A stretch of 64,000 bases of DNA from NCBI RefSeq assembly GCF_054482595.1, contig NZ_CM137008.1, one strand, 5' to 3'. Numbering within the stretch: the first letter of the stretch is position 1; each line of letters begins with the position of its first letter. The position numbers were made by a program. Shown here piece after piece: positions 29,401 to 32,400 of this stretch.

Positions 29401-32400
29401 CAGCCTCCTGCATACCATAGTTCAACGATAACCAGTATGAATCTTTCAGGCTGGGATAAAGCGCGCACAGTTTCCAGGCGCGTTTGGCTTTAAGCGGCAT
29501 AGAGGCTTGCACCGTGAAATGCTGCGCATCATGCCAGCGCAACAGGTTATCAGCCGAAAATGCCGGCAACATGAAAAGGGAAAGAAGTAAAAATAGCAGT
29601 ACGCGCATGATAGCCTCATCAATAATAAGGCTTTATGCTAGATGCATTCCGCTTTGCGACTCAACATTTTTCACCTAAAGGATGACAAAATCACATAAAT
29701 AATTTAAAAATCATAGCATTAGATTACTTAATGATTAAATAATAGACTGCAAAACGCGACAAAACACAACATATCCAGTCACTATGAATCAACTACTTAG
29801 ATGGTATTAGTGACCTGTAACAGAGCATTAGCGCAAGGTGATTTTTGTCTTCTTGCGCTAATTTTTTGTCATCAAACCTGTCGCACTCCAGAGAAGCGCA
29901 ACGCCTCGCAATCCAGTGCAAAGCTTTGCGTGCCCCCACTACGACCTGCATAACCAGTAAGAAGATAGCAGTGATGTCAAACGACGCAGATGTCTTCTTT
30001 TCTTTCATGACTTCTCCAGCATGCATATCTTTCTGCCATGACTGAAGTGAATGCCTGTTATGAGCGAGGATTGGCCCAGACTTAGATAATGAGAGAGCAC
30101 GGTGCTAATACCCAGACACGTCACCAGCCAGGCAACAACAGATGGGGTCATAGCAACATTTTGGAAGGTATCTTCGTATCATGATGTGGTTAAATAGACA
30201 TAATTTAACCCAATGGAATTTTCGCCATGCTAACCTTCTGGCACGAATATTCAGATCTCATATCCGCATTTTTAGCAGCTCTTTTAGGTGGCTGTTTCAC
30301 GATGATTGGAGTGACAACTCAGGTGAAACAGCAGGCAAAACAGCAGGCAACAGCGGCCAGAGAGAAGCGTATAACAACGCTATTGGGTGTCAGAGAGGAA
30401 ATAGACTCACTGATTAAACTGTATCAGGCCAGAATGGCAGAAGAAATCGAAAAATACGACCGGAACTCACCGTTCGATAACATTTTCCCCATTACTCAAA
30501 ACTACTTCACGTTCTATGAAGCCAACTCGGCATCCCTACCTGAAGTTCATAGAGAAACACTCTCAAAAATTGTGGCTTTTTATACAAGCGCAAGAAGCCT
30601 AATTGATTCCTATCGCGGCAATAATGCGCTTATCGAACGGCTAGACTCCACGCAGGTTGCAAGTGACATTACTGGCAACAAAGAACATCTTGCACACCTG
30701 AAAAGATACACAATCCTAGCCACAGAGTACGGCCGCGGATTAATGATGATTCATGATGAGGTCATGCTCCGCTATAAACAGGTTATAGAAGCCATCGATG
30801 GTGAAATCTCACAGCTACAATGCAGTTAGCACTACAACCTGTCCGCATATTGAGCGACACGGTCGGATTTAGTGGGCTGAATGTCCGTTGTGAGCACTTA
30901 ACGGACATTGCTAACCGCCTTCTGAGTGAATTATCAGGGAGTAGGTCAAGATGGGACGTAGAGCACAAATCGTGGACAACATTTTTCGGGCACTTTTTAA
31001 AAATGACTAAACTGGTAAAATTCGATGTTATGAGCTGCGCTTTTAAGGGCCGTTAGTCGCATAGATTGTTAATCTATTCAGCGTTACTCATTCTCCAGAT
31101 TACCAGTTTAAATGGATGCACGGCCACCATGTTAAAATCTAACGCGGCCCTAAAGTCAGAGTGTAATGGGAAATGCAAGAAGTTATTTTCGTGCGCGTTC
31201 ACTGGCGCACCTTGAGCAACCATTTCTCAATGCGTCTTAAAAGAGATGACTTGACTAAATTATGTATGCACTATCTGAATCTGATTTTTTTACTTAAAAG
31301 GGGGTTTTCAATGACAGCAATAGCCTGCTGGCTAAACAGGGAAGAAGGGGAAAGTATCTGGGCCGTAAGCGACTCAAGAATCACCCAGCATGAAAGTGTA
31401 ATGACAAATCACTGTCCTAAACTATTCTCGATTCCGGTATCAGTTATTCGCTCCAATGACATATACCGTCTATCTCCGGAAAAAATTATGGAGTTTGGTT
31501 TCGGCTTTGCAGGAGGAACAATGATCGGTATAAATGTGAAGGAGTTACTTGCCGTATCATTATCTTCATTACATGAAGTTAATTATTATGATGTTCAGCA
31601 GCCGGAGTTGACTTATGATAGTTACCCGAGTCTTTATGAAATTGCAGTTTTAACAAAGGGAATCGCAGAAAAATTTATACTGGATATTGGCCAGTTTTTT
31701 CCCCGTTCTGTAGCAACGGAGATGATTATTTACGGATTCTGTTTCAGAACACAGGTACATAAAATCATTAAGATCTACAACACCCCATCAAACCCCACTA
31801 ATCTTGTAATTGAGGACTGCCTTGACCTGACAACAGGTACCCCGGTAGTCTTGGGAGACAGAAAGCAGCAGTTTCGGGAAGATATTGAGATGACGAGGGG
31901 GCGTTTTGAGAATGGCACACTTAACTGGTGGCGGGCGCCATTTATCGCGTTAAACAACTGGATATCACAGGACACCGTAAATACAATTGGTGGGTATATT
32001 CAGTTCTCAATGGCGAATAGAATTGGCGCAAGAAATCTTTTTATGTCCAGCTCAGAGTCTAACCCCCTTGATATGACCTATGCCGGAATCAGTAATACAA
32101 GTGCTCCAGGATTTACCATTGGACAACTTAGTATTATGCCAATGTTAGGTATGACCCTTCCTGGGGAAAATGGCTGGCCATACGGCGATCAAATACTCCA
32201 TAATGATTAGAAGGTTAAGTATTTTATATTGGATATATGGCTATTGTGCTGCCATGATTCTAACAAATTATGCTTAAGAGGTGGTGCAACTCCTCTCATA
32301 CAAAAAATACGTAAAATCAGTAACGGCTGGAAATAATTCAATACATACACTCTCGAAAGTGCATCAGCCAACCGCAGCACGTCTTGCATACGGCGTGTCT

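Follow-up and report, generated by a model that had tools for sequence, protein, structure and literature searches.

A predicted proteasome-type Ntn hydrolase carried alone as accessory cargo of a lambda-like Escherichia coli prophage, with a possible role in phage defence

What would a protein resembling a proteasome beta subunit do on its own in the accessory cargo of a prophage? The question is raised by a 299-aa protein, with the N-terminus MTAIACWLNREEGE, whose gene lies near the attachment site of a lambda-like E. coli prophage within the window, the 64,000-nt stretch of DNA that was analysed (Table 1). A first-pass annotation had read it as a stand-alone threonine protease, similar to proteasome beta subunits and HslV, in the cargo slot of the lambda b region. 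We know of no biological role for any bacterial proteasome homologue beyond HslV and the actinobacterial 20S proteasome, whether Anbu, BPH or the 22 families discussed below. The explanation developed here is that the protein is probably a stand-alone threonine Ntn hydrolase (MEROPS T1-like), carried as prophage cargo and serving most likely as an anti-phage or conflict module; taken as a whole, we regard this account as an even call.

Table 1. Features of the locus, in window positions. Conservation counts refer to 128 relatives at about 20-25% identity.
Feature	Position	Strand	Remarks
Host torT, chromosomal flank of the prophage end	28580..29608	-	RefSeq annotation of identical region
Mobile module, 200-aa gene + 299-aa gene	29915..32404	+	2,490 bp, 99.0% identical in a different prophage (blastn, E. 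coli NADC1036)
Predicted membrane/coiled-coil protein, 200 aa, upstream neighbour	30227..30829	+	co-travelling, not obligate
Shine-Dalgarno-like AAGGGGG	31298..31304	+	read from sequence; 6-nt spacer to ATG at 31311
CDS of 299-aa predicted proteasome-beta-like Ntn hydrolase	31311..32210	+	stop codon included
Thr2 codon, predicted N-terminal nucleophile after Met removal	31314..31316	+	T 125, S 3 of 128
Asp21 codon, predicted counterpart of proteasome Asp17, end of strand S2	31371..31373	+	128/128
Lys37 codon, predicted counterpart of proteasome Lys33	31419..31421	+	128/128; core strand starts at residue 38
GFGFAGGT, residues 63-70, loop before helix H1	31497..31520	+	G63 119/128, G68 127/128
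Gly182-Asp183, loop before helix H3	31854..31859	+	G182 128/128; position 183 D60, S31, N11, T8
Ordered C-terminal tail specific to the family, residues 247-299, past the core	32049..32207	+	
Lambda ea47 homologue, marks lambda b region	32618..33877	+	98.8% to lambda Ea47 (tblastn); phrog_19262, E = 8.6e-292
Tail fibre assembly (tfa) + side tail fibre (stf), end of late operon	34006..37625	-	ORFs + RefSeq annotation of identical region

The position of the gene within the prophage is defined by its homology to lambda, which covers window positions 32278-34095 (lambda 22468-24289) and begins 68 bp past the stop codon of the 299-aa gene. Because of this extent, the gene can be assigned to the ea31/ea59 slot, from ea47 to the torT-side end of the prophage; with ea47 and torT as flanks, the cargo-slot reading of the first-pass annotation holds. 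No AAA+ or HslU gene is found nearby, as had also been claimed, the neighbours being the 200-aa membrane protein, Ea47, tfa, stf and torT. Lambda Ea31 and Ea59 have the same b-region position, upstream of ea47 and on the same strand, and Ea31, at 296 aa, is similar in length, but neither has detectable similarity to the 299-aa protein. Identity with Ea31, the lambda protein singled out earlier for comparison, was rejected, as tblastn gave no match to the 299-aa protein in 50,697 phage records, lambda (J02459) included. The literature found on ea31, ea47 and ea59 is limited to uses of the b region in engineering.

The earlier placement of the start at MTAIACW, behind a Shine-Dalgarno-like run, agrees with the homologues. 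Met-Thr is the exact start in 17 of the 19 close homologues, and 146 of 173 retrieved relatives begin in the same way. Additionally, a purine-rich Shine-Dalgarno-like run lies 5-9 nt before ATG-ACN in all ten homologous loci examined, and an in-frame stop lies just 3-93 nt upstream of it in nine of these ten. Since homologue starts, Shine-Dalgarno-like runs and close upstream stops agree, we take the 299-aa start as correct, and a start elsewhere is ruled out; a 345-aa start at 31173 was rejected on the same three grounds. At the gene level, the chain thus opens with Met-Thr and bears no propeptide. PGAP itself is inconsistent at this gene, calling 345 aa in one genome and 299 aa in two further records. 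A promoter and terminator scan of positions 29600-34050 returned a site count not above that of shuffled sequences.

Sequence searches place the protein outside the described families of the collections searched. Pfam, including PF00227, has no match for it or for any of the 128 relatives, and NCBIfam and PHROGs have none for the 299-aa protein. The 5,027 defence protein models of PADLOC-DB 2.0 gave no match to it at E <= 1; for ten diverse relatives, at E <= 0.1, the sole match was a weak partial one to BrxC (E 0.017) for the relative P0059. The protein is thus no close homologue of a characterised family of another fold in Pfam, NCBIfam, PADLOC or PHROG. Among PDB sequences, neither phmmer nor an hmmsearch with the 128-sequence profile recovered a proteasome chain, and hhalign of the same profile against E. 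coli HslV gave a probability of 0.3%, which is no signal (the HslV sequences gathered from the PDB are E. coli copies only). The family is nonetheless large, with 803 clusters at 50% identity (E <= 1e-3), and its AFDB relatives, from Proteobacteria, Cyanobacteria and Bacteroidota, are almost all named 'Uncharacterized protein'. It is nearly absent from sequenced phages and rare in IMG/VR, where a scan with a narrow alignment found four loci. A few relatives (P0072, P0108, P0143) bear C-terminal fusions, whose reading by eye yields no functional clue.

Structure prediction gives a clearer picture. AlphaFold2 without templates, run on the monomer only, gave the same topology from 19 sequences (pLDDT 83.8, pTM 0.85) as from 128 (pLDDT 94.8, pTM 0.92). 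The model is a four-layer alpha-beta-beta-alpha sandwich in which the proteasome topology (S1-S10/11, H1-H4) is present, and we are confident in assigning the protein, on this prediction, to the proteasome-type Ntn-hydrolase fold. The closest structures are 20S beta subunits, specifically immunoproteasome beta5i and protozoan beta5-type chains, at about 10% identity, and the likeness to 20S beta exceeds that to HslV. Because sequence profiles give no link, the predicted homology to the proteasome rests on the modelled structure and on motif positions, so the Ntn-hydrolase similarity put forward earlier is supported by structure and not by sequence profiles. The proteasome core, which has several insertions inside it, takes up about residues 2-246. 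The C-terminal extension of some 120 residues in the first-pass annotation is therefore present but shorter, at about 50 residues, as the rest consists of insertions within the core.

The conserved residues fall where such a fold would need them. Thr/Ser2, Asp21, Lys37 and the Gly-rich loop occupy the topological positions of proteasome Thr1, Asp17, Lys33 and Gly47, a correspondence of topology rather than of residue-level superposition. Each of the motifs named in the first-pass annotation is conserved in the family: the threonine right after Met, the Asp17-like AVSDSRIT region, in which position 22 is also S or T in 125 of the 128 relatives, the lysine likened to HslV K33, and GFGFAGGT. Both models have a strand at residues 15-20/21, with Asp21 at its end. 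By topological position, GFGFAGGT may correspond to the Gly47 oxyanion-hole region and to GFAGGT in HslV (as in the MG1655 sequence). Gly182-Asp183 may likewise mark the place of the proteasome Gly128-Ser129 loop, a match suggested by secondary-structure order only. The alignment of the 128 relatives also has a [T/S]225-I-G227-G228 motif before strand S10.

These features set the protein apart from the known proteasome-type enzymes. It differs from 20S beta subunits (MEROPS T1) in its identity of about 10%, in having neither a PF00227 match nor a propeptide, in being about 100 residues longer through insertions and C-terminal tail, and in its carriage on mobile elements, where no alpha subunit, ring partner or ATPase gene lies near it. 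HslV (ClpQ) has 176 aa, its gene is paired with hslU, and it depends on that partner, whereas none of the contexts of the 299-aa gene has an AAA+ gene next to it. The E. coli hslVU genes are located elsewhere in the genome, and the protein could in principle serve as another HslV that makes use of the HslU ATPase of the host, as the HslV-like GFAGGT motif would allow. We consider this very improbable: the protein exceeds HslV by its insertions and tail, hhalign finds no profile similarity, the structure is nearer to 20S beta, and members of the family are found irrespective of HslUV, in Cyanobacteria among other groups. The Anbu gene belongs to a conserved operon that also contains ATP-grasp and transglutaminase-like genes, and BPH, of about 185 aa, forms double heptameric rings; we know of neither as mobile-element cargo. 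No Anbu-type operon surrounds the 299-aa gene or its family members in the contexts examined.

The archaeal connectase (DUF2121) is the precedent for a proteasome-like fold yielding a ligase instead of a protease, and the 299-aa protein might by analogy work as a monomer that catalyses sequence-specific transpeptidation or ligation and not degradative proteolysis. Connectase has a core without helices H1 and H2 (PMC8665760) and, between strands S3 and S4, a helical lid, whereas both helices are in the 299-aa model, no lid insertion appears in its predicted secondary structure, and its Z to connectase is far below its Z to beta subunits. With the structure so arranged, a connectase-like activity is improbable, if a little less so than dependence on HslU.

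The nearest company of the protein may be a class described computationally. Fuchs, Alva and Lupas 2021 (PMC8665760) catalogued 22 new families of proteasome homologues, with no function and no defence context, and these (PMI-4, GPH, DPH, RPC and PPH among them) likewise stand alone, have insertions or C-terminal extensions, and have no AAA+ partner; PPH and AAH are phage-borne. The earlier remark that the protein matches no described family therefore stands for Pfam, NCBIfam, PADLOC and PHROG, and gives way in so far as this wider stand-alone class has been catalogued (PMC8665760). PMI-4 has a taxonomic spread about as broad as that of the 299-aa family (PMC8665760). GPH is gammaproteobacterial and would also have a C-terminal domain, if 'DGH' in that paper means GPH. 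Membership in RPC or PPH is unlikely because both are without helix H2, which is present in the 299-aa model; PPH, moreover, is about 140 aa (PMC8665760). The Fuchs representatives HDY66466.1, WP_152342571.1, WP_074989469.1 and WP_140207863 are absent among the cluster members listed.

The gene travels in company within E. coli. The 2,490-bp block that holds it and the 200-aa gene is 99% identical across a lambda-like prophage, a CPS-53-like prophage and a plasmid-borne copy, and in E. coli NADC1036 its place is immediately behind intS at tRNA-Arg. Its GC content is 40-44%, against 50-55% in the flanks. From these comparisons, the 2.49-kb stretch appears to be a module that moves between unrelated prophage types. 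Such joint travel, as one block in these three settings and with strand and orientation shared, raises the prospect of a two-gene system, in which the 200-aa membrane protein senses or executes and the protease activates or regulates it. A gap of 481 bp separates the two genes, though, and their linkage is confined to the E. coli module. The other nine family contexts, among them that of the 80%-identical Pantoea gene, lack a homologue of the 200-aa protein, and no proteasome-like gene lies within 6 kb of its 85-92% identical homologues in Serratia and Cronobacter. These reciprocal context checks led us to reject an obligate partnership, and a two-gene system is in our view unlikely.

The contexts of the family provide the main hint of function. 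Eleven independent contexts were surveyed, the window included, and they hold neither an AAA+ gene nor any conserved neighbour. They consist entirely of prophage ends, islands and one ICE, and PADLOC-confirmed defence genes occur in five of them. The Serratia context has PDC-S33 and the Providencia context PDC-S59, while those of Photobacterium, Pantoea and an E. coli island have a CBASS effector and/or cyclase, the last of these together with PDC-S20 (KAP NTPase); a metagenomic contig has NERD and DUF2726. The link between the family and defence is one of guilt by association. On this ground we put forward, tentatively and with somewhat less than even confidence, that the family is a widespread single-gene anti-phage module, new as such, with a proteasome-type threonine protease as effector that would be silent until infection and would then cut a protein of the phage or of the host.

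The same contexts also admit a real enzyme with another role for the mobile element or the host, such as counter-defence through breakdown of an immune protein of the host or of a rival element, exclusion or competition between elements, or the hydrolysis of non-protein amides, which many other Ntn hydrolases carry out. The cargo positions of the family are those that hold anti-defence and conversion genes, and cargo slots in general also carry toxins, anti-defence genes and metabolic morons. In E. coli, one common variant lies within an ICE, directly after traC, and not in a classical defence island. Nothing in PADLOC resembles the 299-aa protein, no informative gene context was reported for any of the new proteasome homologues (PMC8665760), and in the literature we found nothing relevant that joins a proteasome-like or Ntn hydrolase with phage defence. 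A role of this other kind is in our view a minority prospect, though a serious one.

Triggered proteolysis in phage defence remains our best inference, and its steps may be sketched as follows. Met1 would be removed by methionine aminopeptidase, on the precedent of HslV, leaving Thr1 as the putative nucleophile, with its own alpha-amine and the Lys/Asp pair acting as proton relay. The enzyme would then cleave peptide bonds. It probably shares with the other enzymes of proteasome type a lack of activity before assembly or an allosteric trigger. Two parts of the chain are the likely surfaces for regulation or recognition, namely the insertion at residues 84-107, which is specific to the family, and the C-terminal tail of some 50 residues. 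Its most likely role in the lysogen would be that of a one-gene module directed against phages or used in conflict between elements, in which infection may set off the cutting of either a phage protein or an essential protein of the host. The model for this last step is Lit of prophage e14, a single cargo protease that stays silent until it is triggered by a product of the phage and that then cuts a host factor; Lit is a zinc metalloprotease of unrelated fold, and the likeness is one of analogy only.

Irrespective of its function, a family of hundreds of clusters that was missed by Pfam, NCBIfam, PHROGs and PADLOC gains a confident fold assignment through prediction, and the inconsistent start-codon annotation of the 299-aa gene in RefSeq is corrected. 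The prophage, ICE and defence-island slots in which the family is found offer the first gene-context hint of a role for such homologues. If the defence reading is true, this would be the first bacterial immune function for a proteasome homologue; it would give a first function to one of the many orphan proteasome-like families, and a new protease class to bacterial immunity.

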